Source of the DNA: Candidatus Hydrogenedentota bacterium
GTDB taxonomy: Bacteria; Hydrogenedentota; Hydrogenedentia; Hydrogenedentales; SLHB01
DNA length: 64,000 nt
Assembly: GCA_036769985.1 (NCBI GenBank)
Contig: DAIPKA010000033.1
Span: 8,900-72,899, forward strand
Reading direction: 5' to 3'
Positions 8,163 to 39,436 of the stretch are shown one piece after another; within the stretch, counting starts at the first letter, position 1, and each line of letters begins with the position of its first letter. The notes beneath the pieces are model-generated. The model ran no database searches. It was not told where the DNA came from and worked only from the letters and a program-made list of their open reading frames with translations. The position numbers were made by a program, and so were the translations under genes.

Positions 8163-9504
8163 ACAGCAACGACTCTTTGGAACGGATGGAATCCGCGGTC
8201 AGGCGAACACCTATCCGATGACGACGGAAATGGCGTTGCGCGTAGGCCGCGCCGCGGGCTATGTGTTTCGCAAGGAAGACCGACCTCACTCGATTCTCAT
8301 CGGAAAAGATACCCGGCAATCGGGCTACTTGATTGAGTATGCCCTAACGGCAGGCATCTGCTCGGTGGGCGTGAACGTGTTGCTCGTCGGCCCGCTTCCG
8401 ACGCCGGGCGTCTCCTACATCATGCGCAGTCTGCGGGCCGACGCCGCGATCATGATCTCGGCGTCTCACAACATGTTTGAGGATAACGGCATCAAGCTGT
8501 TCGCCCGCGACGGATTCAAGATTCCCGATGAAGTGGAGGACGAAATCGAGCGCCTCATCAACTCGAGCGAGATCGACGGCGTTCGTCCGACCGGCGAACA
8601 CGTCGGGATCGCCCGCCGCATCGATGACGCGGTCGGTCGCTACATCGAGTTTGCGAAGGCCTCGTTCCCCAAGGGCATGCGGCTGGATGGACTGCGGATC
8701 GTCTGCGATTGCGCGAACGGGGCGGCGTACAAGGTGGGTCCCTTCACGCTGCGGGAACTCGGGGCCGATGTGATTCCTATCGCCGACCGCCCCGACGGGC
8801 GCAACATCAACGCGGGCTGCGGCTCCGTTCATCCCGAGGAGATGCGTGCCCGCGTGATCCGTGAGCGGGCCGACTTGGGCGTGGCGTTTGACGGCGACGG
8901 CGACCGGATCGCCATGGCGGATGAGGAGGGCCGCCTGCTGGACGGGAACGCCCTGCTGACCATTCTGGGCGTCGATATGCTGGACCGCGGAGACCTTCCC
9001 GAGAAGACGCTTGCGACTACCGTCATGGCGAACGGCGGCCTCGAACGCGCCATCGAGGCCCATGGCGGTCAAGTCCTGCGGACGTCCGTGGGCGACCGGT
9101 ACGTGGTCGAGGCCATGCGCGAGCACGGACTCCTGCTCGGCGGTGAGTCATCGGGGCATATTGTGATGCTCGAACACAACACGACCGGCGACGCGTTGAT
9201 CACGGCGCTTCACGTGCTGGCCACCATGATCCGGAACAACCAGCCGTTGTCTGTTCTAGCCCATGAGTATCAGCCCATGCCCGAGGCGCATACGTCGGTG
9301 CCGGTGCAGCACGGCAAACGCCCGTCTGAAGAACAGATCAATACGATTACGCGCGAGGCGGAGGCTCTGCTGAAGGGATCGGGGCGTGTCGTGATCCGGC
9401 CCTCCGGCACCGAGCCCATCATCCGCGTTATGGTTCAGCACGGGGCGGTCCGCGAGGCCGAACGTCTGGCCAAGAAGCTTGCGGAGCAGATCGCCGCGCT
9501 ATAG
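8155..9504 (+). CDS. glmM: Phosphoglucosamine mutase
   Basis: LFGTDGIRGQAN N-terminus, active-site SASHNMFEDNGIK, 449 aa. Overlaps the folP stop by 8 nt. Confidence 0.9.
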   Translation: MPRQQRLFGTDGIRGQANTYPMTTEMALRVGRAAGYVFRKEDRPHSILIGKDTRQSGYLIEYALTAGICSVGVNVLLVGPLPTPGVSYIMRSLRADAAIMISASHNMFEDNGIKLFARDGFKIPDEVEDEIERLINSSEIDGVRPTGEHVGIARRIDDAVGRYIEFAKASFPKGMRLDGLRIVCDCANGAAYKVGPFTLRELGADVIPIADRPDGRNINAGCGSVHPEEMRARVIRERADLGVAFDGDGDRIAMADEEGRLLDGNALLTILGVDMLDRGDLPEKTLATTVMANGGLERAIEAHGGQVLRTSVGDRYVVEAMREHGLLLGGESSGHIVMLEHNTTGDALITALHVLATMIRNNQPLSVLAHEYQPMPEAHTSVPVQHGKRPSEEQINTITREAEALLKGSGRVVIRPSGTEPIIRVMVQHGAVREAERLAKKLAEQIAAL

Positions 9505-9526
9505 GTGCGTTGCCTCGATTCGAGCG

Positions 9527-10282
9527 CTACTTCTCGGACGTGAAATCCAAGGTGTTGAGAAAATCGTTGAGTGCGCTCTGTTCCTTCTTCGAGATATCGA
9601 CGAATTGCACGCCGCACGCAAAGGCGCCCTTCTCGGGGATTGCCTTTACCCATCGCACGGCGCCGTTGGCGCGAACCATGGCCTTGTTCGGCAGGGCGAT
9701 CTCGAGTCGGAGGTGCTGCGATGTCTCGAGGGGCTGCCGGGTGGCCAACGCGGCACCCCCGTGACTCAGATCCATCAGGCGCCCTTTCACCTCAAACTCA
9801 TCCACCGCCCAATCGTTCGAGTAGCCGGCCGAGGATCCGATCACGAGCTTGATCACCACGCGGCAGTTGTGACGGATCAGATGCCGGCGCTCGCGTTTGA
9901 CCTGACTGCTGTCCGAGGTCTTCAGGCGTTCGATGAGGGCTTGTTGCTCGCGGAGGCGCTGCAACAACTCCTTGTCGGCTTGACGCCGAACCGTTTTTCG
10001 TCGTTCTATCAATGGGCCACCTCGTGTCGAGCGGTAGGCGTTTCCGCGCGCCACTCGCTGTGGGAACGAACGCTTGTCTTCCCGACGCCGCGCTTCTCTG
10101 GCGGCCGAACCGGGCTTGCCGTAGCGCACCCATTCTGCCCGAAGCGCTCGCGATATTGCAATCATCTCTCGATAGGGGCTCTCCATCGGCGCGGCCCTGT
10201 GGGTGCTGCCGACAACCCGCGAGAAGGCGTGGCCGTTCTTCGGCGCCGGATACTCGTCAAAATGGACAAATAATTGACACAA
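9527..10282 (-). CDS. PilZ domain protein
   Basis: The C-terminal approximately 110 aa carry the canonical c-di-GMP motifs RRHLIR (RxxxR) and DLSHGG (D/NxSxxG). The N-terminal half is basic and low-complexity. The start is uncertain: TTG at 10282 or ATG at 10186, neither with a clear SD. Confidence 0.7.
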   Translation of the reverse strand: MCQLFVHFDEYPAPKNGHAFSRVVGSTHRAAPMESPYREMIAISRALRAEWVRYGKPGSAAREARRREDKRSFPQRVARGNAYRSTRGGPLIERRKTVRRQADKELLQRLREQQALIERLKTSDSSQVKRERRHLIRHNCRVVIKLVIGSSAGYSNDWAVDEFEVKGRLMDLSHGGAALATRQPLETSQHLRLEIALPNKAMVRANGAVRWVKAIPEKGAFACGVQFVDISKKEQSALNDFLNTLDFTSEK

Positions 10283-10305
10283 AAGGATTTATGGAGCGTA
10301 TTCAC

Positions 10306-10335
10306 TTGACGGAGAGTTCGCCCTGGTGATAGAAT
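10306..10335 (+). promoter_or_regulatory. Putative sigma-70 promoter for the fusion-pilB-pilT operon
   Basis: TTGACG (10306-10311), an 18-nt spacer, then extended -10 TGaTAGAAT (10327-10335). It lies about 125 nt upstream of ATG 10463. Sequence match only. Confidence 0.4.
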
Positions 10336-10462
10336 CGACACTGGTGTATGCTACACTGGCATCGTCGTTTCGTCGGCGCAGGATGACAGGCGCGAGGGTC
10401 CCCGGCTCCGGGGACACGGGCGAAGGCGGCGGCCATGACGTAGGCCAGGAACGAAGAGAAGC

Positions 10463-12337
10463 ATGCTGGGTTATCACCGATACAAAAAACAGAGTGGCGA
10501 GACGGAACCGGCCGCGAGTGATGCCTCCGCGAACGCCGCGATGACGCCCACTCCGCATGCCCAGGTGCAAGGCCTCGGTGAGGCCCTGGTGGCCCACGGA
10601 GTCATCTCGCAGGCACAGCTCGACCAAGCGTTGGCGATCCAACAGAAGCAGGGCGGCTTCGTGGGCCAGATCCTGGTCGACCTTGACCATGTTAAGCAGG
10701 ACGCGATTGTTTCGTTTCTCGTCAAGGAGTGCAAGATCCCGCATCTGAGTCTGCTCGACTACGATGTGAGCGACGACCTCATGCACCTGATTCCGATGGA
10801 GTTCTGTCTCGAGCACCACCTGCTTCCCATTGACAAGCTGGGCAAGATTCTGACCGTGGCCATGGTGGACCCCTTGGATTCGGCCACGCTGGACCAGGTT
10901 CGGGAGTTGTGTCCGGACCTGCGCATCAAGCCCATTCTGTGCAACTGGCGGCACTTCGAGACGGTGGCCCACAAGTTGTTCGGCGTGCAGGCCGGGGTTT
11001 CGAACGAAGTCACGGCGGACAGCCTTGGCCTGCCGAAGCTCCGCACTGCCCCGAAGGCGCCGTCTCCTTCCGAAAGCCCGGAGGGCGCGGAGGAAGCGGC
11101 ACCGGAAGCACTCGAGGAGGTGGTTGCCAATCTGGCTGCGGGTGCGGCGGAGACCGCAGCGGCCGCGGCGGGTCCCGAGGTGCCCCCACAGCCCCGTGGA
11201 CACGTCGCGGTGCCCGGTGACGCAACCGGGCCGGAGACAAGCGCCGCGCCGGTGGAAGAGGCCCCGTCGGCGGCGATCAGGGAGCCCGAGGCGCCTCCGC
11301 CGCGGCGGCACGAAGGCGGCGAGGGCCGTGGCGTCGAGGATGCGGCGGCTGCGCCGCTGGTCGCGGCGGTGCGTGAAGCCGTGCGCGAGGCGTCCGAGAA
11401 CCTGCTTCGGGCGGTGCCGTCGCTCCATCTCGCGCAGGCCGAGTCGGCGGCGGTGCGTGAGGCCGCCATGCGCGATCTCGTCGAGGCGGGTGAGAAACGC
11501 CAACGGGTTCAGCACGCATCGGTGCGGCCGTTCCGCCCCGATAGGGGCGCGCTGGGCCCGGAGATGCAGGAGGATGATCGGCACGTGATGGACGCCATGG
11601 CGTCTGAGACGCCGCTGGCGGGATTCACCTTCGAGACGTTCTACGCCGGAAAGGTCAACGAGTTTACATACAAGCTGGGACAGGCCGTGTCTGCCAATCC
11701 GGGCGGCGAATACAATCCTTTCTTTCTCTACGGCAATGTCGGGCTCGGGAAGACTCACCTCATCAACGCCATAGGGAACGCGATTTGTGAGTCGTCGCAC
11801 AACCGGCGCGTAGGTTACGTGTCGGCCAGTCACTTCGCGCGCAGACTGGCGGAGGCGCTCCAAGGGCATGCGCTCGAGATGTTCCGTCAGAACTACTGCC
11901 ATTGGGACGTTCTGATTCTGGACGACATTCAGTTCATGGGCGGGCGCATCGAGGCGCAGGAGGAGTTCTTTCACATCTTCAACGTGTTGCACCAGGAGGG
12001 ACGCCAGATTATCATTGCCGGAGACAAGGCGCCGGAGAAGCTGGGTCTGCTGGAACAGCGGCTCGTATCGCGTTTCGCCGGCGGCATTGTGGCGGAACTC
12101 AGGCCGCCCGAAATGGCCACGCGCCTGGCCATCCTGCGGCACTTGCTGAACGAGGCGAAGGCGGATATTCCGGAGGAGATCATTTCCGTCATTGCCATGC
12201 GCGTTCCGAACGACATGCGCATGATGGTCGGGGCGTTGCGGAAGATCATCGCCTTCGACAAGCTGATCGATCAGAAAATCACGTACGAGATGGCCAACGA
12301 GATTCTGAGCCATCTCGGTGTGGTCGAAGCGGCATAG
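10463..12337 (+). CDS. T2SS-E N-terminal (MshEN-like) domain fused to a DnaA/Hda-type AAA+ domain; no DnaA domain IV
   Basis: Residues about 36-172 form a T2SSE_N-like domain (GLGEALVAHGVISQAQLDQALAIQ..LLPIDKLGKILTVAMVDPLD). Residues about 175-385 are an Ala/Pro/Glu-rich linker. Residues about 388-624 are DnaA domain III-like: FTFETFYAGKVNEF, Walker A GNVGLGKTHL, Walker B LILDDIQF, RLVSRFAGG, NDMRMMVGAL. The protein ends at the domain III/IV boundary. Confidence 0.75.
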   Translation: MLGYHRYKKQSGETEPAASDASANAAMTPTPHAQVQGLGEALVAHGVISQAQLDQALAIQQKQGGFVGQILVDLDHVKQDAIVSFLVKECKIPHLSLLDYDVSDDLMHLIPMEFCLEHHLLPIDKLGKILTVAMVDPLDSATLDQVRELCPDLRIKPILCNWRHFETVAHKLFGVQAGVSNEVTADSLGLPKLRTAPKAPSPSESPEGAEEAAPEALEEVVANLAAGAAETAAAAAGPEVPPQPRGHVAVPGDATGPETSAAPVEEAPSAAIREPEAPPPRRHEGGEGRGVEDAAAAPLVAAVREAVREASENLLRAVPSLHLAQAESAAVREAAMRDLVEAGEKRQRVQHASVRPFRPDRGALGPEMQEDDRHVMDAMASETPLAGFTFETFYAGKVNEFTYKLGQAVSANPGGEYNPFFLYGNVGLGKTHLINAIGNAICESSHNRRVGYVSASHFARRLAEALQGHALEMFRQNYCHWDVLILDDIQFMGGRIEAQEEFFHIFNVLHQEGRQIIIAGDKAPEKLGLLEQRLVSRFAGGIVAELRPPEMATRLAILRHLLNEAKADIPEEIISVIAMRVPNDMRMMVGALRKIIAFDKLIDQKITYEMANEILSHLGVVEAA

Positions 12338-12356
12338 CCGCATAGGAGGAAGCGTT

Positions 12357-14087
12357 ATGCCTCCACGAGCAACCCGGCGCCGGTTGCCGGATATGCTTCT
12401 CGAGCAGGGACTCGTCACTGAGCGAGAACTCGAGGAGTGCATGGCAATCCATCGTGCCACCGGACAAGGTTTGGCCGACATCCTCGTCGAGAGAAACTAC
12501 CTTTCGGAAGAGGATCTCGTGGTCACGCTCAGCGAACAACTCGGCATTCCGCACATGCGCGTCGGCCACTACAACGTTCCCAAAAGCATCCTGGACGAGA
12601 TTCCCGAGACGCTCGCGCGCCAGTACATGATGCTACCGGTCTCGTTGACCGGCGACGTATTGACGATTGCCATGGCCGACCCGCTCAATATCATGGCTCT
12701 CGACGATCTCCAGATGCTGACAAGCTACGAGATTGAGCGCGTCGTCGCCATCCGCTCGGAACTGGCCGCCGCCATCGACAAGAACTATGGCGGCGGCAAG
12801 GCGGATGAAATGCTGGACGAGTTGCTCGGCAAGCAGGACGCCGAGCAGGCGAAGATCCAGGAAGTCGAATCCAAGGGAGAGGAGATCGAGGACGTCAGCG
12901 CCCTCGAGGCCGGGTCGGAGGACGAGCCCGTCAAGAAACTCGTCCGGCTGGTCGTCTTCAACGCCTTGGAGGTGGGGGCCAGCGACATCCACCTCGAGCC
13001 CTTCGAGAAGGAAATGCGGCTACGCTACCGGATCGACGGTTCGCTCGAAGAGGCCAAAGGTCCACCGAAGTCTCTACAGACCAAGATCATCGCGCGGCTG
13101 AAAATCCTGGCCGGCTGCAAGATCGACGAGAGCCGGCTGCCACAAGACGGCCGGTTCCGCATGCGATACAAGGGCAACGATATCGATTTTCGTGTTGGTT
13201 TCCTGCCATGTCGGTACGGCGAGAAGGTGGTGCTTCGCGTGCTCGACAAGAGCAGTCTCACGCTCGACCTTGACAAGATGGGGTTCGAAGACCAGCCGAT
13301 GGATGCCTTTCGGGAGGCGCTCGATCGCCCCAACGGCATGGTGTTGATGACCGGACCGACCGGGAGCGGCAAGACGACGACCCTCTACAGCGCCCTGTTC
13401 AAGCTGAACAAGGTGGACGTCAACATCGTGACCGTCGAGGATCCCATCGAGTACGAGCTCTACGGGATCAACCAGGTCCAGGTGCACGCCCGCATCGGCC
13501 TCACCTTCGCCGACGCGTTGCGCCAGATCTTGCGACAAGACCCGGACATTGTGATGCTGGGCGAGATCCGTGACAGCGAGACGGCCGACGTCGCCGTCAA
13601 GGCAGCGCTCACCGGACACCTCGTGCTCAGCACGCTCCACACCAACGATGCCGCCGGCGTGTTTCCCCGTCTGATCGATATGGGCGTGGAACCATTCCTG
13701 GTCCAATCGTCCGTCGTCTTAGCTGCGGCGCAGCGTCTGCTCAAACGCATCTGTGCCAGCTGCAAGGAGCCCATCCGTGTTCCGGCGGATGCGCTCGAAC
13801 GGATCCAGTTCAGGCCGGACCCGGGATCTCCGCCAGCCGAATTTGCTCGGGGACGAGGTTGCGCCAAGTGCAAGAATAGTGGCTACAAGGGCCGGCTGGC
13901 GACCATCGAGGCCATGCCGTGTTATCCGGAAGTGCAAGACCTCATCATGCAACAGGGATCCGGCAACATTATCAAGCGAACGGCCATGGCCTGCGGCATG
14001 CGGTCGCTCCGCCAGAACGCCTTGTCGAAGGCAGCCCGCGGCTTGACGACCATCGACCAAGTGCTTGAGCATACGATCGCAGACTGA
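12357..14087 (+). CDS. pilB: Type IV pilus assembly ATPase PilB (GspE family)
   Basis: An AGGAGGA SD precedes ATG 12357. T2SSE_N domain, Walker A GPTGSGKTTT, Walker B IVMLGEIRD, His box TGHLVLSTLHTN, C-terminal CASC..CAKC tetracysteine. 576 aa. Confidence 0.9.
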   Translation: MPPRATRRRLPDMLLEQGLVTERELEECMAIHRATGQGLADILVERNYLSEEDLVVTLSEQLGIPHMRVGHYNVPKSILDEIPETLARQYMMLPVSLTGDVLTIAMADPLNIMALDDLQMLTSYEIERVVAIRSELAAAIDKNYGGGKADEMLDELLGKQDAEQAKIQEVESKGEEIEDVSALEAGSEDEPVKKLVRLVVFNALEVGASDIHLEPFEKEMRLRYRIDGSLEEAKGPPKSLQTKIIARLKILAGCKIDESRLPQDGRFRMRYKGNDIDFRVGFLPCRYGEKVVLRVLDKSSLTLDLDKMGFEDQPMDAFREALDRPNGMVLMTGPTGSGKTTTLYSALFKLNKVDVNIVTVEDPIEYELYGINQVQVHARIGLTFADALRQILRQDPDIVMLGEIRDSETADVAVKAALTGHLVLSTLHTNDAAGVFPRLIDMGVEPFLVQSSVVLAAAQRLLKRICASCKEPIRVPADALERIQFRPDPGSPPAEFARGRGCAKCKNSGYKGRLATIEAMPCYPEVQDLIMQQGSGNIIKRTAMACGMRSLRQNALSKAARGLTTIDQVLEHTIAD

Positions 14088-14139
14088 AGAACGTTCGGGG
14101 ACTTCGCTGAGGAACTACTCACGGGAGGACGACGACACT

Positions 14140-15213
14140 ATGGTGCCAAGTTGCAAGGAACTCCTGACCAAGATGATCAAGGAGGGCGCCAGTGATATGC
14201 ACATTGTCGTCGGCGCGCCGCCGACGATTCGAGTCCACGGTAGTCTCGAGCCGCTGCCCGGCTACGACCCGTTGACGCCTGATGACACCCAAGAGATCAT
14301 TTACACCGTGATGACGGAAGAGCAGATCGCGGAGTTCGAGTCCGAGTTCGAGTGCGATCTCTCGTTCGGCATCGAGGGTCTCAGCCGATTCCGGCTCAAT
14401 GTCTTTCGCGACCGAGGCAGCACCGTCGCGGCGTTCCGCGCGATCCCCTTCGAGATCCTCTCGTTCCAGGACCTAGGCTTGCCTCAGGTGGTCTCGGACT
14501 TTGCCTACCGCCCGACGGGTCTCGTGCTGGTCTGCGGCGCCACGGGCAGCGGCAAGTCCACGACGTTGGCCGCCATCATCGGCAAGATCAACGCGGAGCG
14601 CGCCGTACACATCATCACCGTCGAGGACCCCATCGAGTTCCTCCACTCGCACAACCGATCCATTATCAACCAGCGCGAGGTCAATGCCGACACCAAGAGT
14701 TTCGGTGCGGCGCTCAAGCGGGTGTTGCGCCAGGATCCCGATGTGATTCTGATTGGCGAGATGCGCGACCCGGAGACAATTCAGGCTGCGTTGACGGTGG
14801 CCGAGACCGGCCACTTGGCCTTCGCCACGCTGCATACCAATGATGCCCTTCAGACCATCAACCGTATCGTGGACGTGTTCCCGTCCACCCAACAGGAGCA
14901 GATTCGGACCCAGCTTTCCTTCGTGCTCGAGGGCGTGGTGGTGCAGCAGTTATTGCCTCGCGCGGATGGTCTTGGGCGCGTGCTCGGACTCGAGATCATG
15001 GTGCCGAATCCGGCCATCCGCTCTTTGATCCGCAGTGAGAAGCTCGAGCAAATCCCATCGATGATCGAGATCGGTACGAGCGAGGGCATGATCACGATGA
15101 ATCAGTCGCTGTTTCGTCTCGCTCGCCGGGGGCTCATCACGACGGAAGTGGCCATGACGCGGAGCCCCAACCAGGAAGGCCTTGAACGGCTCATGGAAAA
15201 GGGACGTGAGTAA
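14140..15213 (+). CDS. pilT: Twitching-motility (retraction) ATPase PilT
   Basis: A GGGAGGA SD precedes ATG 14140. 357 aa with no N-terminal extension. ASDMHI, GATGSGKSTT, VILIGEMRD, TGHLAFATLHTN. Confidence 0.9.
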   Translation: MVPSCKELLTKMIKEGASDMHIVVGAPPTIRVHGSLEPLPGYDPLTPDDTQEIIYTVMTEEQIAEFESEFECDLSFGIEGLSRFRLNVFRDRGSTVAAFRAIPFEILSFQDLGLPQVVSDFAYRPTGLVLVCGATGSGKSTTLAAIIGKINAERAVHIITVEDPIEFLHSHNRSIINQREVNADTKSFGAALKRVLRQDPDVILIGEMRDPETIQAALTVAETGHLAFATLHTNDALQTINRIVDVFPSTQQEQIRTQLSFVLEGVVVQQLLPRADGLGRVLGLEIMVPNPAIRSLIRSEKLEQIPSMIEIGTSEGMITMNQSLFRLARRGLITTEVAMTRSPNQEGLERLMEKGRE

Positions 15214-16837
15214 GACGAGCCTGGATCACAGGCGACCCGTTTCGGAGAGTCACGGCGGTGTGCCGTGGATCATCGGCATCACGCGCGTGGCGGTGCTGAT
15301 TGTTGCGGCCTTCGGCCTCTACTGGTTTGGTGAGCTCTTCATCAGCCGGGGCGGCGTCTATCGCCTCGCGGTCCCGCGCTACATCGTCATCTTTCTGGTG
15401 ACGCTCTACGCCTTCAATCTGATCACCGGTGTGGTCTACCTCGGCGTGCTGCACCGCCATCGGGCCGCCACGGCCATCATGACCTGGACACAGGTCCTCC
15501 TCGATTTCAGCGTGGTGGTGAGCACGATCAGTGTCACGGGCGATAGCAACAGCGTGTTCACGGTGCTGTTGGTCATTGTCATTCTCGAGGCCGGGCTGTT
15601 GTTGGGACTGCCGCAAGGTTTTCTGTTTGCCATGCTGAGCATCGTATACGTGGCTGTTCAGGCATGGCCCAGCGATAGGGCCCAGGTGCCTCCTGAGCTC
15701 TGGTACGATATCCTTATTCAGAGCCTTGCCTTTCTCTTCACCGCCTTCATCAGCGGCTACTGGAACAACCTGATCTTCCGGCTGCGCTCGTTTCAGCGCG
15801 AGATCCTGGACAACCTGAGCAGCGGGTTTCTGATCACGGATCGCACGGGCGTCATTTCGGCTCAAAACCGCGCGGCCGATGAGATGCTGGGCCTGCCGGA
15901 CGGAAGCGCGCTGGGCCGTTCCGCTATCGAGATCCTCAGGCCGGAGTCCGGCGGCGAGTGTCCCATTATGACGGCGCTCCGGTCGGAGCGCGATTTCACG
16001 TCGTTCGAGTTCCACGCGGTGACTCATTCGGGGGGCTCCAAGCTGCTCGGACTCAGCACAAATCGCATCTACGACAAGCGCCACCGGCTCACGGGTTTGA
16101 TTGCGTCGTTCGCCGATATGACGGAAGTCGACACGATGCGTCAGGAGCTGCACCGGCAGGATCGCCTGGCCGCCTTGGGCGAGTTGGCCACCGACGTCGC
16201 GCACGAGATACGCAACCCGGTCGCCGTCATCCGTAGCGCGGTGGAAGAGTTGCAGAACAGTATCGAGTCGCCGGAGAAGGTCCGGAAGTTGGCGGCGCTG
16301 GCTCTGCGGGAATCGGATCATCTCAATCGGATCGTCCGCAGTTTCCTTGACTTCACGCGCAATCCCGTCCGCAAGCATGACGTGTTCGACGTGTGTGCCT
16401 TGTTGCGGGAGGTGGCCGATTCCCTACGGCATCAGTACGCCGACGCGTCGGCGCTCTCCGTCGAGCTCCGGAACGATGATCTCTCGTTTTCGGTTGCCGG
16501 TGACGCGTCGCAGATTCGGCAGGTGTTCATGAATCTGGGCACGAACGCGGTGGAAGCCATGGATAGGCGTGGCCTGCTGGCGATTATCGTCGCGCCTGCG
16601 GGACGATCGATCGAGATTCATTTCGACGACGAAGGCAGCGGCCTCGCGCCGGATCAGGTTGCGCGCATGTTCGAGCCTTTCTATACTACGAAGCAGTCGG
16701 GCGTAGGCATGGGCCTGGCCATCTGCATGCGGATTGTCACGGCCCACGACGGCACGCTGCGCGCCGTGCCGCGGGAGCAGGGGGGGACGCGGATGACGGT
16801 GCGATTGCCGGCTGCCCGCAACCCGCAGACGGAGTAA
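15182..16837 (+). CDS. Membrane sensor histidine kinase (PilS-like)
   Basis: Roughly 6 N-terminal TM helices, a PAS-like segment, the H-box ELATDVAHEIRNPV, and HATPase N/G boxes (NLGTNAVEAM, DEGSGL, GVGMGLAI). Overlaps the pilT 3' end; an alternative GTG start exists at 15206. Confidence 0.8.
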   Translation: MNGSWKRDVSKTSLDHRRPVSESHGGVPWIIGITRVAVLIVAAFGLYWFGELFISRGGVYRLAVPRYIVIFLVTLYAFNLITGVVYLGVLHRHRAATAIMTWTQVLLDFSVVVSTISVTGDSNSVFTVLLVIVILEAGLLLGLPQGFLFAMLSIVYVAVQAWPSDRAQVPPELWYDILIQSLAFLFTAFISGYWNNLIFRLRSFQREILDNLSSGFLITDRTGVISAQNRAADEMLGLPDGSALGRSAIEILRPESGGECPIMTALRSERDFTSFEFHAVTHSGGSKLLGLSTNRIYDKRHRLTGLIASFADMTEVDTMRQELHRQDRLAALGELATDVAHEIRNPVAVIRSAVEELQNSIESPEKVRKLAALALRESDHLNRIVRSFLDFTRNPVRKHDVFDVCALLREVADSLRHQYADASALSVELRNDDLSFSVAGDASQIRQVFMNLGTNAVEAMDRRGLLAIIVAPAGRSIEIHFDDEGSGLAPDQVARMFEPFYTTKQSGVGMGLAICMRIVTAHDGTLRAVPREQGGTRMTVRLPAARNPQTE

Positions 16838-16843
16838 ACCTCG

Positions 16844-18250
16844 ATGATCGCTAAGCAACGGGTGTTGGTTGTCGACGACGAAATCAACATGCGCGAACTG
16901 CTCGAGATCATTCTCGATACGGACGGATACGAAGTGGTGTCAGTTCCCGACGTGCCGTCGGCTATTGAGGCGTGCAACGCTACGGTGTTCGACGCGGTCC
17001 TCACCGATCTCCGCATCGGTAACGAGAAAGAAGCCGGCATGGAACTCCTGACGTGGCTCAGCGAGAATGCGCCGACTACACCGGCCATTATGATGACGGC
17101 CCACGGATCCGTCGAGACGGCCATCGAAGCCATGAAGCGCGGGGCCGACGACTACGTTATGAAACCGTTCAAAAACGACGAAATCCGGCTGCTGATTCGC
17201 CGCTCGATCCAGCAACGCAATATCCTTCGAGAGAATGTCGCGCTCCGTCGTGACCAGGTGGCTCGGGGGAAGATCACCAACATCATCGGCAACAGCCACG
17301 CTATCGAGGAAGTCAAGACCATGATCCGGCGCGTGGCTATGCTTCCCAGCACCATCGCGATCCACGGGGAAAGCGGCGTCGGAAAGGAAGTCGTGGCCCG
17401 CGCCATCCACACGCTCAGTGCCCGGGCGGACAAGCCCTTTGTCGCCATCAACTGCGGCGGGATCCCCGAGCACCTCCTCGAGAGCGAATTATTCGGCCAC
17501 AAGCGCGGATCGTTCACCGGCGCCGTAGACGACAAGGAAGGTCTGTTCGTGGTGGCGCACGGAGGGTCCTTGTTTCTCGACGAGATCGGCGAGATGCCCC
17601 TCAGTCTCCAAGTCCGTCTCCTGCGCGTCCTCGACAACAACAGCGTGATGCCCGTGGGCGGAACGTCCCAGATCAAGGTCGATGTACGCATCGTTTCGGC
17701 CACGAACCGCGACCTCGAGAAGATGGTGGCCGACGGCACGTTCCGCAAGGATTTGTTTTATCGCCTGAACGTGATTCCGGTGTATGTGCCGCCGCTCCGC
17801 GACCGGGCGGATGACATTCCGCTGCTGGCGCGGCATTTCATCGAAAAGCACGCCTCGAAGATGGGAAGGCAGCGCCTAGGCATCTCGAAGGCCGCAATGG
17901 CGGCCCTGCAGCGCTTCGCCTGGCCCGGCAATGTTCGTGAGCTCGAGAACGTCATGGAGCGCGCGGTGGCCCTGTGCTCGAGTGAGGAGATCAACGTGGA
18001 CGATCTACCTCAAAACGTGCGCAATTTCATGGCCGAGCCGGCAGAGTGCATGGTCGAGCTTCCCCCCGGGGGCCTCGATCTCGAGGCCCGCATGGACAAG
18101 ATTGAGTCGGCCATGATTGGCCAAGCACTCGAGCGCTCCAAGCACTCGCAGAAGCGTGCGGCCCAACTCCTCGGTCTTACGCCGCGCTCATTGCGGTACC
18201 GCCTCAAGAAGCACGGGCTCGAAACCGACGCTTCCGACGAAGACGAGTAG
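16844..18250 (+). CDS. Sigma-54-dependent response regulator (NtrC/PilR family)
   Basis: Receiver domain (VLVVDDE..LTDLRIG), sigma-54 AAA+ domain (GESGVGKE, ESELFGHKRGSFTGA, RLNV), C-terminal Fis-type HTH (AAQLLGLTPRSLRYRLKKHG). Starts 6 nt after the kinase stop. Confidence 0.85.
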   Translation: MIAKQRVLVVDDEINMRELLEIILDTDGYEVVSVPDVPSAIEACNATVFDAVLTDLRIGNEKEAGMELLTWLSENAPTTPAIMMTAHGSVETAIEAMKRGADDYVMKPFKNDEIRLLIRRSIQQRNILRENVALRRDQVARGKITNIIGNSHAIEEVKTMIRRVAMLPSTIAIHGESGVGKEVVARAIHTLSARADKPFVAINCGGIPEHLLESELFGHKRGSFTGAVDDKEGLFVVAHGGSLFLDEIGEMPLSLQVRLLRVLDNNSVMPVGGTSQIKVDVRIVSATNRDLEKMVADGTFRKDLFYRLNVIPVYVPPLRDRADDIPLLARHFIEKHASKMGRQRLGISKAAMAALQRFAWPGNVRELENVMERAVALCSSEEINVDDLPQNVRNFMAEPAECMVELPPGGLDLEARMDKIESAMIGQALERSKHSQKRAAQLLGLTPRSLRYRLKKHGLETDASDEDE

Positions 18251-18258
18251 CCGGCGGT

Positions 18259-21200
18259 CTACAGGTAGCCGAGCGCCTCGAGTTGCTTGCGCGTGTCGCC
18301 CGCCGCGTCCTTGCCGAGCGCCGGCTCGGCGGCATTCTCGCGAATGTGCAGGCCCATGTCGTTGAGGAGACGATCCAACTCCTCCTCATCGTTCTTGCGC
18401 GGATTCTCTCCGCCGGCGATGTTGGTTTGCTCGCCGGGATCGGTCGCAAGATCATAGAACGCGACGGGGGCGAATCCACGCGGATTATCCTCGTTGGCGT
18501 GGACGATCTTGGCGCTCGTCGTGCGGACGGCCTGCAGATCGTTGCCCTCGAAATCCACCTCGGCGTAGACATATGCCGTATCGGCGTTGACGTCGTTACC
18601 GGAACGATCGACGAGGGGTTTACCGGGCATGGCGGCAGGCTTTTCGAGGCCGGCGTATTCAAGGAAGGTTGCCGGGATATCGATGTGCCGCGCAAAGTGC
18701 GCATTGGTCTCGCCGGCGCGGCCATTGGCCGGTAGCTTGACGATCAGTGGCACATGCATGAGCTCGTCGAATAGGGTCTGACCGTGCCACCACCCCTGGT
18801 GATCGTAGAACTCCTCGCCGTGGTCGGCCGTGAATACAATCAACGCGTCATCGTAGAGACCGCGATCGCGCAACCCCTGGAACAACTCGCCGAGATACTT
18901 GTCCATGTACTCGATGTCGTCGTTGTAAGCCTTCTTCATGGGCTCGGCCATCTTCGGGTCGGGATCGCCCATACGCGCGCGGGCGTAGCCGACGCCAGGT
19001 TTGTCGTGGTCCATGAAGGGATCGTGCGGATCCATGTAGTGCAGGAAGAGATAGAACGGCGTGCCTTCCGGTACCGCGCCGGCATCGAGCCATGCCAACG
19101 CGTCGTGGGTGACGACGTCCGCCGGCTGATAGAACTCGGTTACGTCGAGCTTGTTCGAGATCTTCGATGCAACCTTCTGTTTGCCGTGCCGAAGCACCTC
19201 GTAGAGCGAGAGTTTCGAGGCCGAGGGCGTTGCGCCGAAATAGTAGACGCTCGGCTTGAGGTCGGTGTAGTCGACGAATCCCTGGTCGAAGCTCCAAATG
19301 CTCATGATGTTCGGATTGTTCGACAGGCCCTTCGTGTAATAGCCGCCGTCGCGGAGCACCTCGGCTACGGTCTCTACCTCATCCGGCAGCGACGAGGTCT
19401 TCGTGGTGGCGGTATGCGATTCGGGATACAGTCCTGTGAAGAGGGTGGCGAAACTGGGCTTGGTCCACGTTGACTGGGCGAAGCAATCCGCGAAGAAGAG
19501 GCCGTCCTTCTTGAGCGCATCAAGGTTGGGCGTTTCGGCGGCGGCGGCGTCCGAATACATTCTCAAGTAGTCCGCCCGGAGCGCATCCGCCGCCACCAGG
19601 ATGATGTTCGGGCCGTGGACGCCGGCGGTTGGCTCGAACGGCGCCGCGGCTACCGGCGCCGGTTTCATGGCCGCACTGAGTCCGACACCGACGACGACGA
19701 GCACTCCGTACGCCACGGCGCCGGCCACGAGGCCTTTCATACGCCCGCCGCCCACGATCCAGAGGATGACGCCGACAACCAGGGCTGCCGCCAGTCCGAT
19801 GCCGAGGGCCGCGACCAGGATCTGGCCATTCTGGCTCATGGTAGGCGCGTGGCCCTCGAGCACGTCTCGTTGGAACCGGAACCGGCCTATCACGAGTACG
19901 CCTGCCGCCAACACACCGCCCAGGCTAAGCGCAAAGGTGGTGCGGCCGCTGGCGAACCGGTCCACGAGCAGGTAGAAGAATGCCAGCGCGCCGGCCACGC
20001 CGAGTCCGACCAAGGCGAACATGACCCCATAGGCCAGCGGCCCCCACCAGAACAGGCCGAGCTCCTGAAGGCCCTGTACGGTGCGGACCACCCAGCCGGC
20101 CTCGGCCAGGGCGATCACGGCGCCGCCGAGCGCGCCACCGAACAGGCCGGCCAGCACACAGCCGATCAGGCTACACCGGTACCTCTGCACGGCTTCCGGC
20201 GCCAGATGCAGGTATTCCTCAGTCTTGGCGGCGGCCGCTTCGCGGCGCGCCTGAGCCAGTTCCGCTTGGAGTTCCATCTTGCCGGGCCTCTTGCGCGCGA
20301 CATAGATGGGCAATCCGATGAGGAATGGAATGACGTCGCCTATCCACCACCCGAGGTGCGCGAAGGTGGCCGCCGCCGCCGCGCCGCTCTTAGCGCTCAA
20401 CAAGGTGACAAACACGATCTCGCGAATGCCTTCGCCCCCGATGGACGGCCCGAGCACCGTTCCGTAGATCATGAGCGGACTGGCGAACAGGATGTCGAGG
20501 AGATCGGTGTTGGTGGCGCGGATGGCCATCATGGTGCCAAAGTACATGATGCACGTGCCCACATGCACCAGAAAACCGAAGAACACCGCCAGGAGCAGAT
20601 CCCACCGGTTTCCGCTGTACGCCGTCGCGGCCGCGCCCAGCTTGAGAAGCTTATTCCGCACGAAGCCCGGTGTCGGCACCACAGACACGAGCACCTGAAT
20701 CACCCGAGGGTTCAGCAGCAGCATTAGGAACACCGCCACCATGCCGCCGAGAACCGCCAGAATGACGGCCAAGACCGGCACGTTGATGTTCAGCAAACGG
20801 AATCCGAGCGGAAACGTCAGGAAGACGAGGCCCGTCAGCGCGATGAAGCCAATGAGCTTCTCGACAGCGATCACGGTGACGCACTTGATGACCTCGCCGG
20901 TGTACCGCGAGGAATCGTAGAGTCGGTAGCCGTCCAGACCGATGGTTCCCGGCAGGAAGATGCCAATCGTGCGGCCCACGAACCAGCTCTGGACCAAGTA
21001 CCAGAACGGAATACTCAGGCCTTGCCCGTGGAGTAGAAGTCGCCACCGGAGCACTCCGCACAGCATGCCGACTAGCTTCACGACCAGCGCAAAGGTCAGC
21101 CAGAACGCGACCGCATGCGCCTGCGACTCACGAATCTCGCGCATCATGTCGGCCGGGCTGATGTCGCCAAACCGGTCGGAGGGAAGCCCGAACGTCTCCG

Positions 21201-21342
21201 GTCGGAACAACAGCAGGAAAAGACCCGCCGTCACCGCAAGTTTGATCACCCACCCAACCGACTTCTTCACAGACACAGTTTTTCCTCCGGTGCGCCGCCG
21301 CTCTATCGAATAGTCAGCATTTCCCGTTCGGGAGAGTACCAT
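18259..21342 (-). CDS. Fusion: MprF/LPG-synthase-TM (flippase-like) polytopic domain plus extracytoplasmic alkaline-phosphatase-superfamily (sulfatase/phosphodiesterase-like) domain
   Basis: The ORF is open to a TTG at 21384; the first ATG is at 21342. The N-terminal approximately 560 aa are polytopic ([21 protein letters not shown].., many helices). The C-terminal approximately 430 aa carry [48 protein letters not shown] and [9 protein letters not shown]. A Thr occupies the nucleophile position and there is no C/S-x-P-x-R. Confidence 0.7.
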   Translation of the reverse strand: [1027 protein letters not shown]

Positions 21343-21512
21343 AGACTTCTCTGGCCTCACAACCTGGCGAGTGCTCGGTCCCAAAGCGCGCGGACCTCGC
21401 CGTCTCCTCGTCTCGTCCTTTCCGGCAGGCCTTGCATTTGCCTATCGCCGAGGTCACACTGGCGTTCGGAACGCGGTCACGACCATTCAGAACGTCCTGA
21501 CGAGGAGGCACC

Positions 21513-31286: not shown

Positions 31287-34200
31287 ATGCGAGCACAAGT
31301 TATTCTGCCCTGGGTCGTTCTGTGCCTCTGTCTGCTTCCTCTGGCATCGTTCGGTGCGCCGGAGGCGGATCACGAGGATCTGAACAAGGTCTTGAAGACG
31401 CTCCATGCGCCCGCCGCCCAGGAGGCGCCGCGTCTACTCACCACCGACGAAGGATTCCTGCGCTATCTCGGCGCCCCACCCGGCGGGGAGTTCGATGTCC
31501 CCCGCGAACCGGGCAAGGCACTTGATCCCGTACAGCGTTCGAATCAGTTTCTGGTGGACCACGGTCGGGCGTTCGGCATCCTGAGTGCATGCGTCGACTT
31601 TCGACTTGATCGCGTCACCGCCGGTACCAGCCAATCGTATGTGCGACTGCAGCAGACCTATGACGGCGTCGACGTATTCGCCGGGCAGGTCGTGGTGCAG
31701 GTCGATGGCTCGGGGGGCATCAACAGCGTGCTGAGCGATATCCTCCGCGACACCGAGGCGTTCGACGACGGCGCGATCGATACCCTTCCCGAGGTCAGCG
31801 CGAAGGACGCGCGCACCTTGGCCGGAAAGGCCGTGGCCAACGAATCGCCCAGCCACGGGATCGGCGATCTCAAGGTCATCGCCGGCCCAACGCTCGTGAT
31901 CTACAGTCCGGCCGTCCTGGGCCTGGACGGCGACGCGGCCCTCGCGTGGTACGTCACGGTGGCCAGCCTCTACGACGCACAACTGTGCAAGGACGTTTTT
32001 GTGGACGCCCATAGCGGCGAAGTGCTCCTCCAATTCAACACCATTCCCGAGGCCCGGTATCGCGAGGTCTACGATGCCGCGAATATGTACGACACGGCAG
32101 GTGATCTGGCACGCAAGGAGGGTGATCCGCCGTCCGCCGTCGTCGATGTGAACGATGCCTACAACCACCTCGGTGACACGTACGATTTCTACTATGAGCA
32201 ACATGCGCGTGATAGCATCGACGGCCTAGGCATGACGCTGACCGCTATCGTGCGGGTATGCAGTATCTACTATGGATGCCCGATGCAGAACGCGTTCTGG
32301 GATCCGCAGGCCAAGCTGATGGCTTTTGGCGAGGGTTTCGCCTCCGCCGATGACGTGGTGGGCCACGAGTTGACCCACGGCGTGACGCGCAACGAGTCCA
32401 ATCTCATCTACATGGGCGAATCGGGCGCCATCAACGAGACCTTTTCAGACGTCTGGGGCGAGTTTGTCGATCTCACCAACGGCCGAGGCAACGACACGGA
32501 AGAAGTCCGGTGGCTCGTGGGCGAAGACCTTCCCGAGAGCATCGGCGTCATACGCAACATGGCGGATCCGCCGGAGTATGGCCTTCCGGATCGAATGGGG
32601 AGTCCGTACTGGAGACCTACAGACTGGATTTGGGACGACCAGGGCGGCGTGCATACCAACTGCGGCGTGGGCAGCAAGCTGTGTTATCTCTTGACCGATG
32701 GCGACGATTTCAACGGCTACCGCATTGATCCGCTGGCCGAGGAGTCGGATGCGAGCATTGCCCGCGTGGCCGATCTGTTTTACGAACTCCAGACGAAACT
32801 GCTCACGCCGGCCTCCGACTACAACGACATGTACATGCAATTGGCTCAGGCGACTATCAACCAGGGGTACACCTTCGATGAACGCCTGAACGTCCGCGCC
32901 GCGGGCCTGGCGGTGGAGATCGCCCCGTTGGGGTCGGGCCGCGAGTTGGACCGGTTCCGCGTCATGCCCGCCTACGACCGCGCGGCCAATCCCGTGGTCG
33001 TGCTCACCTGGGGGAATCCGAAGACGACGGACTTCATCGGCGTGACCGTAGTCCGGAATCTCTACCGGTTCCCGCTGGACCAGGGTGACGGAGTCGTTGT
33101 CTACTCGGGCAAAGCGGAGAAGGCGCTGGATCGAGACGTGGTCAAGAACACGGAGTATTACTACGCGATCTTCGCGGACTTCAAAAAGGACTTCCCGCAG
33201 GTGCTCTATGGCCGTGCGACGGCGGGCACCGAACCGCCGAACATGCTGAGCGAGGCCTTCGACATGAATCTGGCCGGCGAGGTGGGCTTGAAGATCGACC
33301 TGGACGAGTTCATCGATCTGCAGTTCCAGCAGTTGCTGTTTACGCCCGTCGGCCCGCCGGAATCTGCCCTGGGTGGTGACGAGGGATACGCCGACTATTT
33401 CAACTACGAGGCGACGAACACGCCCGGTGTTGTTGAGCTTCCCGTGCCTCGGCACGACAGTCAAGGAACGGCGTATGGGATTCCGTTGAACGACGACAGC
33501 TTCATCGCGTTTAGGTTGGACGACCCATTCCCGTTCTTCGGCAAGGAGTACTATACGTTGTATCTTGCGGCGAATGGGTACATCGCTCTCGAGCCTCCCA
33601 GCTACGACGAGAACTTCCCGTCGCTGGCGGCGCATTTCGCCTCGCCTCGGATCTCGTTCCTGTTCGGCGACCTCTCGCCCCAAAGCGGCGGGGAGGTTTG
33701 GGTGCGCGACTTGCCGGACCGCGTCGTGGTCACCTTCGACGGCATCCTCGAGTACAACGAGTCGATGTTCCTGCCCCCGGCCTCGTGGCGGAGCACGGTT
33801 CAAACGGAGTTGTTCTACAACGGCCAGATTCGGATCACCTATCTCCAGGTCTACAATGTGGGGAGCATCGTGTGCGGTATCTCCGATGGCCGCGGCGTTC
33901 CCATCGACCCGAGCGAGCTATTCCCGGATCTCGTCGAGGTGGATTACACGACGGACCTCTCCGACTTGCCGAACGACCGCACGCTCCTCAGCATCGATCC
34001 CGTCGCGCCGCAGTGGGTTTTGGCCGGCCAACCCGTGAGTTTTGCCGTGACAACGCACTCGCCGGCCGGCGTGCCACGCCTCCTCGCTCAGTGGGACGGC
34101 CCCTTGGCTGTTCCGCCGTTCGCGGATAAGGGGGATGGCACCGGCGTATTCTACTGGAGGACGGTGCTCGGCCAAGAAGGGATCTACACGTTGCGCGTGA

Positions 34201-35039
34201 CCGCGGCCCTGGGCGAGGAAGGCGCATATCAGGACGTCCGGATCCATGTCGGCGATCCGTCGCCCAAACCCGAGGCGCGGGACCTGCGCCTGCGATCGGC
34301 CAACCCCACCGAGGATCCCACGGAGGATCGGCCGGTCGACGGCCAGTCGCCCCTTATGGCCGAATATACCTACTACCACCCGCTGGCCGATAAGGATCCC
34401 GACCTCTATGGCGAGAGCATCCCGCTTCTTTACTGGGTGAGGAACGGCGGAGCGGTGGCGGCGCTCGATAACGCGTGGCAGGTGCCGCCGAAGTTCACGA
34501 GGGCGGGCGACAAGTGGTTCTTCGTTGTGACGCCGATGACCAAGCAGGGCGTCCGGGGCGAGCCGGCACGTTCGTGCACCGTCACGGTGGTATCCATGCC
34601 GACGATCACCAGCGCCACGCCGGCCACCGGACCCAGCACGGGCGCGACGACGGTTCTACTCACGGGCACCCGGCTGAGCAATCCGAAGAAAGTCACCTTC
34701 GGTTCAATCCCCGTGCAGAACATCCGATGCCTGGGTGATACGCAACTCGAGGTGGTTAGCCCCGCGCATGCGCCCGGCGTGGTGGATATTCTCGTCACCA
34801 CCGCCGAGGGCACCGGCTATCTGCTCGGCGGTTACGCGTTCGTCGATCTCGGGGCGACCATCGTCAAGGCCGACGTCAATCGCGACGGGCGGACGGACGC
34901 GCTCGACGTGCAACTGGTTGTTAACGTGGTGCTGGATCGCGTCGGCGCCAAGGCCGGCGTCGATGCCGACGCCAACCGTGACGGTGCCGTGAACGCGGGC
35001 GACATCCAGGCCGTTGTGAACGTGGTCCTGAGCAAGTGA
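31287..35039 (+). CDS. Secreted M4 (thermolysin-like) zinc metalloprotease with long C-terminal extension, IPT/TIG-like domain and dockerin-like repeats
   Basis: Signal peptide MRAQVILPWVVLCLCLLPLASFGA. Zinc site VVGHELTHGV plus GAINETFSD. An IPT-like segment (PTITSATPATGPSTGATTVLLTGTRL..VDILVTT). A terminal duplicated Ca-binding repeat: DVNRDGRTDALDVQLVVNVVL and DANRDGAVNAGDIQAVVNVVL. Confidence 0.85.
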   Translation: MRAQVILPWVVLCLCLLPLASFGAPEADHEDLNKVLKTLHAPAAQEAPRLLTTDEGFLRYLGAPPGGEFDVPREPGKALDPVQRSNQFLVDHGRAFGILSACVDFRLDRVTAGTSQSYVRLQQTYDGVDVFAGQVVVQVDGSGGINSVLSDILRDTEAFDDGAIDTLPEVSAKDARTLAGKAVANESPSHGIGDLKVIAGPTLVIYSPAVLGLDGDAALAWYVTVASLYDAQLCKDVFVDAHSGEVLLQFNTIPEARYREVYDAANMYDTAGDLARKEGDPPSAVVDVNDAYNHLGDTYDFYYEQHARDSIDGLGMTLTAIVRVCSIYYGCPMQNAFWDPQAKLMAFGEGFASADDVVGHELTHGVTRNESNLIYMGESGAINETFSDVWGEFVDLTNGRGNDTEEVRWLVGEDLPESIGVIRNMADPPEYGLPDRMGSPYWRPTDWIWDDQGGVHTNCGVGSKLCYLLTDGDDFNGYRIDPLAEESDASIARVADLFYELQTKLLTPASDYNDMYMQLAQATINQGYTFDERLNVRAAGLAVEIAPLGSGRELDRFRVMPAYDRAANPVVVLTWGNPKTTDFIGVTVVRNLYRFPLDQGDGVVVYSGKAEKALDRDVVKNTEYYYAIFADFKKDFPQVLYGRATAGTEPPNMLSEAFDMNLAGEVGLKIDLDEFIDLQFQQLLFTPVGPPESALGGDEGYADYFNYEATNTPGVVELPVPRHDSQGTAYGIPLNDDSFIAFRLDDPFPFFGKEYYTLYLAANGYIALEPPSYDENFPSLAAHFASPRISFLFGDLSPQSGGEVWVRDLPDRVVVTFDGILEYNESMFLPPASWRSTVQTELFYNGQIRITYLQVYNVGSIVCGISDGRGVPIDPSELFPDLVEVDYTTDLSDLPNDRTLLSIDPVAPQWVLAGQPVSFAVTTHSPAGVPRLLAQWDGPLAVPPFADKGDGTGVFYWRTVLGQEGIYTLRVTAALGEEGAYQDVRIHVGDPSPKPEARDLRLRSANPTEDPTEDRPVDGQSPLMAEYTYYHPLADKDPDLYGESIPLLYWVRNGGAVAALDNAWQVPPKFTRAGDKWFFVVTPMTKQGVRGEPARSCTVTVVSMPTITSATPATGPSTGATTVLLTGTRLSNPKKVTFGSIPVQNIRCLGDTQLEVVSPAHAPGVVDILVTTAEGTGYLLGGYAFVDLGATIVKADVNRDGRTDALDVQLVVNVVLDRVGAKAGVDADANRDGAVNAGDIQAVVNVVLSK

Positions 35040-38947: not shown

Positions 38948-39436
<489 letters not shown>

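Follow-up and report, generated by a model that had tools for sequence, protein, structure and literature searches.

A gene joining MshEN and DnaA domain III at the head of a pilus motor operon

The window, the whole stretch of 64,000 nucleotides (nt) analysed here, derives from a Candidatus Hydrogenedentota genome (contig DAIPKA010000033.1). At positions 10463-12337 it contains a gene for a protein in which an MshEN domain, the type of domain that binds cyclic di-guanosine monophosphate (c-di-GMP), is joined to an AAA+ module resembling domain III of the replication initiator DnaA. This fusion gene is followed by pilB, pilT and two regulator genes on the same strand, and the features of the block are listed below.

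10306-10335, forward strand: sigma-70-like promoter candidate (TTGACG, 18-nt spacer, TAGAAT, extended -10 TG)
10463-12337, forward strand: MshEN-DnaA domain III fusion gene, 624 amino acids (aa), ATG start, first gene of the block
10571-10729, forward strand: MshEN_N, four-helix subdomain of c-di-GMP-binding type (motif I, residues 37-60; 5-residue spacer; motif II, residues 66-89)
10733-10990, forward strand: MshEN_C, alpha/beta subdomain (residues 91-176, Pfam PF05157)
10991-11554, forward strand: disordered linker rich in Ala, Pro and Glu (residues 177-364)
11555-12334, forward strand: DnaA domain III-type AAA+ module, ending at the domain III/IV junction
12357-14087, forward strand: pilB, assembly ATPase with MshEN and T2SSE domains (T2SSE PF00437 at 434 bits)
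14065-15213, forward strand: pilT, retraction ATPase (TIGR01420 at 470 bits, cut-off 319)
15182-16837, forward strand: pilS-like PAS histidine kinase gene (Pfam; orthologs with 6TM_PilS)
16844-18250, forward strand: pilR-like gene for a sigma-54-dependent response regulator (Pfam)

The fusion protein consists of three parts, a complete MshEN domain, a disordered linker of ~190 aa and a DnaA domain III AAA+ module. An alignment-based AlphaFold model gave predicted local distance difference test (pLDDT) scores above 90 at residues 31-175 and 385-615, and below 50 over most of residues 180-365, with a moderately predicted helix at residues 320-350. Both modules are highly conserved in the family alignment while the linker varies freely in length and sequence, the proteins spanning 548-1042 aa; within the linker a motif, HASVxPF (residues 351-357, nt 11513-11533), is conserved. 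The G+C content at third codon positions (GC3) was 0.68-0.90 in frame along the whole open reading frame (ORF) and 0.75-0.82 within the linker.

The ATG start codon at 10463 is supported by the family N-terminus, as at least 90% of the 121 aligned members have Met at query position 1. A preliminary description of this DNA, made from the sequence alone, had noted a strong sigma-70-like promoter before the gene and tight spacing to pilB, and both observations were reproduced. The candidate at 10306-10335 has 10 of 12 consensus matches and is the top site within 9400-18600, though the consensus may not be that of the host phylum. Between the fusion stop and the pilB ATG at 12357 lie 19 nt, which contain AGGAGG. 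The true start of pilT is probably the ATG at 14140. No riboswitch or other structured RNA, in the 5' leader or elsewhere in the window, was matched at the Rfam gathering threshold. PilR is a sigma-54 activator, and a sigma-54 promoter was therefore looked for upstream of the operon; matches were no more frequent than chance would give, and the stretch in front of the fusion gene had none.

A phylum-wide family linked to pilB

One genome from each of 185,579 species was scanned with patterns specific to the N-terminal module, which yielded 90 confirmed sites, 80 of which were kept. Nearly all were labelled Candidatus Hydrogenedentota, Hydrogenedentes or Hydrogenedentales. The exceptions, co-assembly bins named 'uncultured Nitrospiraceae/Nitrospirales' and one site each from 'FCB group', 'Rhodothermaeota' and 'Bathyarchaeia', have an identical operon, and their off-phylum labels are probably errors of taxonomy or binning. 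The fusion is a real and conserved family found throughout Candidatus Hydrogenedentota. The architecture is not rare; the family is already in the databases across a whole phylum, though functionally undescribed.

Synteny was assessed by local tblastn with the window proteins. The DnaA-type module followed the N-terminal module in 67 of the 72 loci having enough downstream sequence, and pilB lay immediately downstream of the fusion in 67/67, with a median of 70 nt between the AAA+ and PilB matches. Where 9 kb or more of downstream sequence was available (54 loci), all five genes were found in order (fusion, pilB, pilT, pilS, pilR) in 42 cases, the fourth and fifth genes of orthologous loci encoding a PAS histidine kinase (6TM_PilS) and a sigma-54 response regulator. 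The genes flanking the block differ between lineages. No pilC was present within 10 kb at any Hydrogenedentota locus, so the conserved unit is a motor-plus-regulator block of the type IVa pilus.

A homolog search returned 563 matches, and the best 120 clusters all combined MshEN with Bac_DnaA; in these 120 relatives, without exception, the Walker A motif sits 197-207 aa from the C-terminus. An exhaustive search gave 18,942 matches (E <=1e-3). Clustered at the 50% level, its 150 best representatives included ~90 in which the AAA+ module stands at the extreme C-terminus. A protein of equal length and 99% identity to the fusion, differing by four substitutions and no insertions or deletions, is encoded on an independent contig. 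Family members stand in the databases under generic or wrong names, for example 'DnaA/Hda family protein'. Many are called 'chromosomal replication initiator protein DnaA', which is wrong because these proteins have neither domain I nor domain IV of DnaA.

The MshEN module and its predicted c-di-GMP site

The earlier assignment of a T2SSE_N fold was upheld by a match to PF05157 at residues 91-176 (61 bits, Pfam cut-off 23.1), and the c-di-GMP motif model NF053729 matched residues 38-86 at 50.2 bits (NCBIfam cut-off 38). The four helices of MshEN_N were modelled at pLDDT >90. MshEN_C contains near-invariant stretches specific to the family, CKIPHL, LPIDKLGxILTVAMVDPLD and LRIKPILC. When the model was compared by Foldseek, the N-terminal part aligned with c-di-GMP-bound MshE (5htl) at a template modelling (TM) score of 0.73 over 136 columns.

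Motifs were scored at the 11 specified positions of the relaxed motif of Wang et al. 2016 (PMC5013675). Motif I of the query had been described as fitting this pattern with the leading Arg alone missing, and it indeed scored 10/11, the Arg being replaced by G37. The reported 5-residue spacer and degenerate second motif (7/11) are likewise present. The family consensus is KRLGELLLEEGLITQEQLDEALAIQ for motif I and, five residues further on, FLGQILVELGFVTQEAVASCLVKQ for motif II. At least 10 of the 11 positions of motif I were kept in 98/121 members. The best score for motif II was 10/11, reached by 69/121 members, and the position that fails is the first, which is Phe or Tyr throughout the family as against Arg, Lys, Pro or Asn in the relaxed motif. 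An aromatic residue at this point could still stack on guanine. In MshE the guanine O6 and N7 are bound by the backbone amides of two motif glycines (PMC5013675). These guanine-contacting glycines are retained in 112/121 and 114/121 family members for the two half-sites. The MshEN module appears to keep the residues needed for c-di-GMP binding and is predicted to bind the nucleotide.

The adjacent PilB carries an MshEN domain of its own, and the fusion MshEN is 28% identical to this PilB N-terminus over 120 residues without gaps. In the window PilB (residues 9-61, 12381-12539) the c-di-GMP motifs are degenerate, reading RLP at motif I and GLA at motif II, yet this PilB is accepted by the NCBIfam motif model, with a score of 47.3 bits. 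Among 69 genomes the PilB motif II Gly was found in none, being replaced by Ala (36), Pro (19), Gln (10) or Ser (3); the motif I Gly was found in 34, with Pro or Glu in about half and Pro in the window PilB. As the fusion keeps both glycines while the site of PilB itself has decayed, these data suggest that the fusion may be the operon's intact c-di-GMP sensor, acting in trans on PilB.

Known MshEN receptors of c-di-GMP include Vibrio cholerae MshE, PilB-type ATPases and NfrB-type glycosyltransferases (Wang et al. 2016, PMC5013675). The fusion shares with them an MshEN_N with two 24-residue motifs five residues apart, followed by MshEN_C. It differs in the Phe or Tyr that begins motif II and in its output, a DnaA-type AAA+ module in place of a T2SSE ATPase or glycosyltransferase. 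PilB, MshE and GspE end in the hexameric T2SSE ATPase; PF00437 matches the adjacent PilB and not the fusion. A parallel in concept is offered by the FimX-PilZ-PilB complex of Xanthomonas (7lkm/7lko) and other c-di-GMP regulators that act on PilB in trans; there too a distinct c-di-GMP-binding protein serves the PilB motor or is encoded beside it, as the fusion would do. There the sensor is an EAL or PilZ protein, whereas the putative sensor of the fusion is a paralog of the PilB N-domain carrying an ATPase output. Structure 7lkm, which contains the PilB N-domain fold, was itself among the Foldseek matches of the fusion.

A DnaA domain III without the rest of DnaA

The preliminary description had recognised DnaA domain III by its Walker A and B motifs, sensor 1 and boxes VII and VIII. 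All are present, and Bac_DnaA (PF00308) matches residues 388-544 at 188 bits (Pfam cut-off 23). The key residues are Walker A (nt 11732-11755), Walker B D487/D488, sensor-1 D521, box VII R533 and R537 (the Arg finger) and sensor-2 R586, and by alignment the set corresponds to K178, D235/D236, D269, R281/R285 and R334 of Escherichia coli DnaA. The Arg finger of the latter is box VII R285 (PMC5716108). The Walker A Lys, Walker B Asp pair, sensor-1 Asp, both box VII Arg residues and the sensor-2 Arg are invariant in 121/121 members. The modelled module matched domain III of Bacillus subtilis DnaA (8bv3) with a TM score of 0.92, a root mean square deviation (rmsd) of 2.0 A and ~40% identity, and superposed on DnaA structures at 1.7-2.0 A with the two-helix initiator-specific insertion kept. 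Given the retained catalytic residues, Arg finger and insertion, the module should bind and hydrolyse ATP and form open, DnaA-like oligomers that depend on the Arg finger.

The other parts of DnaA are missing. A Pfam search of the fusion protein gave no match to Bac_DnaA_C (PF08299), DnaA_N (PF11638) or T2SSE (PF00437), so that of the models proposed beforehand as a check PF05157 and PF00308 were found and PF08299 was not. When E. coli DnaA was added to the 121-sequence alignment, the C-terminal A624 aligned with K372, which is the domain III/IV junction. The protein was correctly said to end at this junction, and the distance from box VIII, given as about 25 residues, was measured as 32. A frameshifted DnaA_C domain had been raised as a possibility; tblastn with domains I and IV of E. 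coli DnaA found neither in any frame of the window, nor in the 86 other loci (1.45 Mb with the window), a set of fragmentary DNA that is uninformative on the organisms' own dnaA. Since the whole family lacks domains I and IV, the fusion is not a replication initiator.

Several positions that serve DnaA in other ways have also changed. The H-motif residue V211 of E. coli DnaA is required for binding of single-stranded DNA (ssDNA) (PMC5716108). Its equivalent in the fusion is A463, and in the family most often Ala (35), Ser (20), Lys (13), Gly (12) or Thr (11); the canonical DnaAs compared have Ile, Val or Leu in 11/11. AID-1 R227 of E. coli DnaA is needed for inter-protomer contacts specific to ATP-DnaA, and this position is Cys in 111/121 members. 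The B-motif R245 position is Glu in 115/121, which was given little weight as a sign of lost ssDNA binding because the DnaA proteins of B. subtilis and Thermotoga maritima also lack Arg there.

The DnaA structures compared (8bv3/8btg of B. subtilis, 2z4r of T. maritima and 3r8f of Aquifex aeolicus) share with the fusion the domain III fold including its insertion, Walker A and B, sensor 1, the box VII Arg finger and sensor 2. In the fusion, however, MshEN takes the place of domain I, there is no DnaA-box helix-turn-helix, the hydrophobic H-motif residue is not conserved and the AID-1 Arg has become Cys. Its score against the DnaA equivalog model TIGR00362 is 281.2 bits, from model positions 99-338 of 437 only, below the cut-off of 343.9, and its gene stands in a pilus operon instead of adjoining dnaN.

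Hda and HdaA are like the fusion in being DnaA-derived AAA+ proteins that lack domain IV and keep the Arg finger, and an Hda-like adaptor had been put forward as one possible role. This was not borne out. Hda is a stand-alone protein of ~230-250 aa (225-253 residues in solved chains), whereas the fusion has 624 aa and an additional N-terminal domain; the score against the Hda model TIGR03420 was 100.6 bits, below the cut-off of 194.8. Hda carries an N-terminal beta-clamp-binding motif, and the strict form of this motif, QL[SDPE]L[FPL], was found in 0/121 family members. A phmmer search of the PDB gave 199 bits for the best DnaA (8bv3) and 34-48 bits for Hda chains; the AAA+ module is nearer to DnaA than to Hda both in score (199 versus 47 bits) and in rmsd (2 versus 4-5 A). 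With domains I and IV, the H-motif and the clamp-binding motif all missing, the fusion is neither DnaA nor Hda. The closest canonical DnaAs are proteins of Chloroflexota and Clostridia that reach 42-45% identity only, which marks the module, as judged by sequence, as an old, diverged DnaA paralog. A recent duplication of dnaA within the phylum was considered and is not supported, since the nearest canonical DnaAs come from those two groups.

Relatives with other architectures

The same N-terminal module, with its CKIPHL, LPIDKLG and LRIKPILC signatures, and a low-complexity linker of the same style occur with other outputs. They are fused to PAS-GGDEF at three Hydrogenedentota loci (L079, 9956-11530; L084; L085) and to a cyclic nucleotide monophosphate-binding domain at two (L049, 9821-11242; L074, 3124-4452); the genomes of L079 and L084 encode the DnaA fusion as well as the PAS-GGDEF version. 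The module looks like a portable sensing or docking device, and its varied outputs would fit a common device that delivers them to one place or answers one signal.

Variation was also seen on the DnaA side. One homolog, P0213, is short (454 aa) and divergent, with ~40% identity in the AAA+ module. Its gene stands between pilT and pilB within a complete cluster with the order GGDEF, pilT, the homolog, pilB, pilB, pilC, pilS, pilR and pilin. Further short forms combining MshEN and DnaA domain III exist, and one protein of 1,876 aa (P0122) has MshEN and two DnaA domain III modules. In another group (P0203, P0207, P0214-P0216, P0243), for example from Candidatus Auribacterota, an N-terminal DnaA domain III is followed by ~370-440 residues without a Pfam match; this architecture and the tandem one described next both came to light in the exhaustive search. 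Each architecture forms its own clade in a rough neighbour-joining tree without support values.

A search with the short homolog P0213 returned mostly tandem DnaA domain III proteins of Gemmatimonadota. These proteins of ~640 aa, which lack domain IV and are annotated 'DnaA/Hda family protein', are abundant in that phylum. They have kept the catalytic residues and the Arg finger, and a literature search gave no publication describing them. At the three loci examined (L089, 8001-9944; L090, 7001-8914; L091, 7001-8947) the surrounding cluster is the same, with CheA, CheC/X, TPR, PATAN, TPR, two Roadblock proteins and a small GTPase in its first half and, from the tandem gene on, PATAN/TPR, CheR, CheD, CheB, CheW and CheW. 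Pairs of Roadblock protein and small GTPase (MglB/MglA), and PATAN proteins, take part in the control of pilus-based motility in myxobacteria and cyanobacteria; MglA, SgmX and FrzS are subjects of papers in the literature searched. The tandem proteins resemble the fusion in having domain III as their only DnaA part and in lying in motility or signalling clusters; they differ in having two AAA+ modules and no MshEN, and Che, small GTPase, Roadblock and PATAN neighbours in place of pilB and pilT. By analogy they lend independent, circumstantial backing to DnaA domain III-only modules working in motility and signalling contexts.

The fusion as a putative regulator of the pilus motor

Taken together, these data lead us to favour, with moderate confidence, a role for the fusion as an accessory regulator of the PilB/PilT pilus motor that would depend on c-di-GMP and ATP. 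The MshEN module would sense c-di-GMP, dock at the same partner at the pilus base as the PilB N-domain, or both. The AAA+ module would self-assemble in the presence of ATP into an open DnaA-like oligomer through its Arg finger, and the two modules together would tune the activity or placement of the motor according to c-di-GMP. The sequence had already prompted the proposal that the protein is recruited to the pilus motor or cell pole and not to oriC, and recruitment to the motor is favoured by the strict synteny with pilB (67/67) and by the divergent homolog inside a complete pilus cluster.

Several observations weigh against this role. Motif II of the present copy scores 7/11, with degenerate residues at D75, H76 and E89, and no family member fully meets the published relaxed motif because motif II begins with Phe or Tyr. 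With the Arg of motif I replaced by G37 and motif II eroded, this ortholog may bind c-di-GMP weakly, with a lower affinity than typical orthologs. The conserved basic residues R460, R461 and R495 lie close to the former ssDNA site, so the module may still bind nucleic acid. Six genomes retain the fusion and pilB alone, and neither pilC, pilM-Q nor pilin genes lie near the fusion. The invariant Arg finger would be equally expected if its partner were the real DnaA of the cell. The architecture, residue conservation, phyletic spread and synteny are established by the data; binding of c-di-GMP, oligomerisation and the pilus motor as target are what we infer from residue conservation and guilt by association.

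The alternative that best survives, although we consider it unlikely, is that the fusion couples pili and c-di-GMP to replication, its DnaA-type module forming hetero-oligomers with canonical DnaA. It might then cap or poison the DnaA filament, or its Arg finger might stimulate hydrolysis of DnaA-bound ATP, and contact with a surface or the c-di-GMP state at the pilus would in this way gate the start of replication. The invariance of the Arg finger, box VII, sensor 2 and nucleotide site agrees with this, and the close resemblance to true DnaA domain III (199 bits, TM 0.92) makes an interface of the DnaA-DnaA type plausible. The shedding of DNA-binding parts has the look of a dominant-negative regulator, and in Caulobacter the start of the cell cycle takes input from pili and c-di-GMP. 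Hda offers a precedent, being described in excerpts of two papers (PMC7049699, PMC5397184) as a DnaA domain III-only protein that acts on DnaA. Against it stand the Cys at AID-1 R227 (111/121), the lack of a clamp-binding motif in any member together with a score under the Hda cut-off, and an identity of just 42-45% to any canonical DnaA found. The linkage to pilB and the homolog within the full pilus cluster point to a partner in the pilus, and a second family of DnaA domain III-only proteins sits in a motility-control cluster. The invariant Arg finger suits both readings; regulation of the pilus motor is preferred to an action on replication because of the Cys at AID-1, the absence of a clamp motif, the strict linkage with pilB and the parallel in Gemmatimonadota.

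In its most direct form, which we hold to be rather doubtful, the fusion would be a physical bridge in one polypeptide between a surface organelle and the replication initiator, with MshEN docked at the motor and sensing c-di-GMP and the DnaA-type module co-assembling with, sequestering or inactivating true DnaA. If true, surface contact or the level of a second messenger would license or block the initiation of replication.

A third possibility, that the fusion is an ssDNA-handling ATPase of a competence-type pilus and binds incoming ssDNA at the pilus base during transformation, is judged improbable. DnaA domain III binds ssDNA elsewhere (the top structural matches include 3r8f and 8btg), the basic residues R460, R461 and R495 lie close to the initiator-specific motif, and many bacteria take up DNA by means of type IV pili, as stated in the abstract of PMC12024867. 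However, the hydrophobic H-motif residue is unconstrained in the family (V211 in E. coli; PMC5716108), the R245 position is Glu in 115/121, and comEA, comEC and dprA were not seen in the conserved block.

Finally, an artefact, whether a chimeric assembly or frameshift over the linker or a truncated true dnaA, is excluded by the comparative data: the linker is indeed of low complexity and GC-rich, and some databases do call family members 'chromosomal replication initiator protein DnaA', but the architecture recurs in >500 clusters, none of them with domain IV, whose assemblies are independent and in part closed long-read chromosomes, the Walker A to C-terminus distance is uniform, domain IV is found in no frame of the window, pilB begins 19 nt past the stop, and the equal-length copy on another contig also counters the mis-join in the linker that had been feared.

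Novelty of the architecture

The preliminary description knew of no characterised protein pairing these domains. In line with this, a literature search found no publication on the combination of MshEN with DnaA domain III, most papers in subscription journals being outside its coverage. The sequences themselves are already known from public databases; what is new is an MshEN effector architecture and, with it, a non-replicative DnaA domain III paralog. The AAA+ core of DnaA is viewed as reserved for the initiation of replication and the control of that step, in DnaA and Hda. Here, throughout an uncultured phylum, a DnaA core that looks catalytically intact belongs constantly to a pilus motor operon and is joined to a domain of c-di-GMP receptor type. 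The occurrence of both the Hydrogenedentota fusion and the Gemmatimonadota tandem family in motility contexts, the latter in a chemosensory and polarity cluster, suggests that motility systems have repeatedly taken over the initiator ATPase as a switch for signalling or assembly.

For work on c-di-GMP, the operon, in which the site of PilB itself is decayed, is one where sensing in trans could be tested. For work on replication, the family supplies natural variants of DnaA domain III that keep the chemistry of oligomerisation and have shed DNA recognition. Genome annotation is affected as well, as pipelines mislabel many such proteins as the replication initiator DnaA.

Neighbouring genes in the window

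A further gene with a possible link to c-di-GMP lies upstream of the fusion gene and is divergent from it, the two sharing an intergenic region of ~180 nt.

9527-10282, reverse strand: PilZ-domain gene, 251 aa (Pfam PilZ at 48 bits, residues 141-242)

This gene was considered as a conserved part of the system and rejected, as a PilZ ortholog was found near the fusion at 0/86 other loci. It may provide the present pilus locus with an additional c-di-GMP receptor peculiar to the lineage.

On the other side of the block, adjoining pilR downstream on the opposite strand, 18259-21384 (reverse strand) encodes a membrane protein of 1,041 aa with a transmembrane region of lysylphosphatidylglycerol-synthase type and a sulfatase/phosphodiesterase domain. 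Two further long genes encode proteins of secreted type, one an M4 thermolysin-like peptidase of 1,250 aa with TIG and dockerin domains (31287-35039), the other a protein of 1,724 aa with Big_12 and fn3 repeats (47782-52956, reverse strand). Three long ORFs of 413-801 aa, at 37252-39015, 40682-43087 and 44670-45911, have no Pfam match; their GC3 is 0.61-0.68 as against 0.77-0.84 in their neighbours, and they may be foreign DNA or not real genes.

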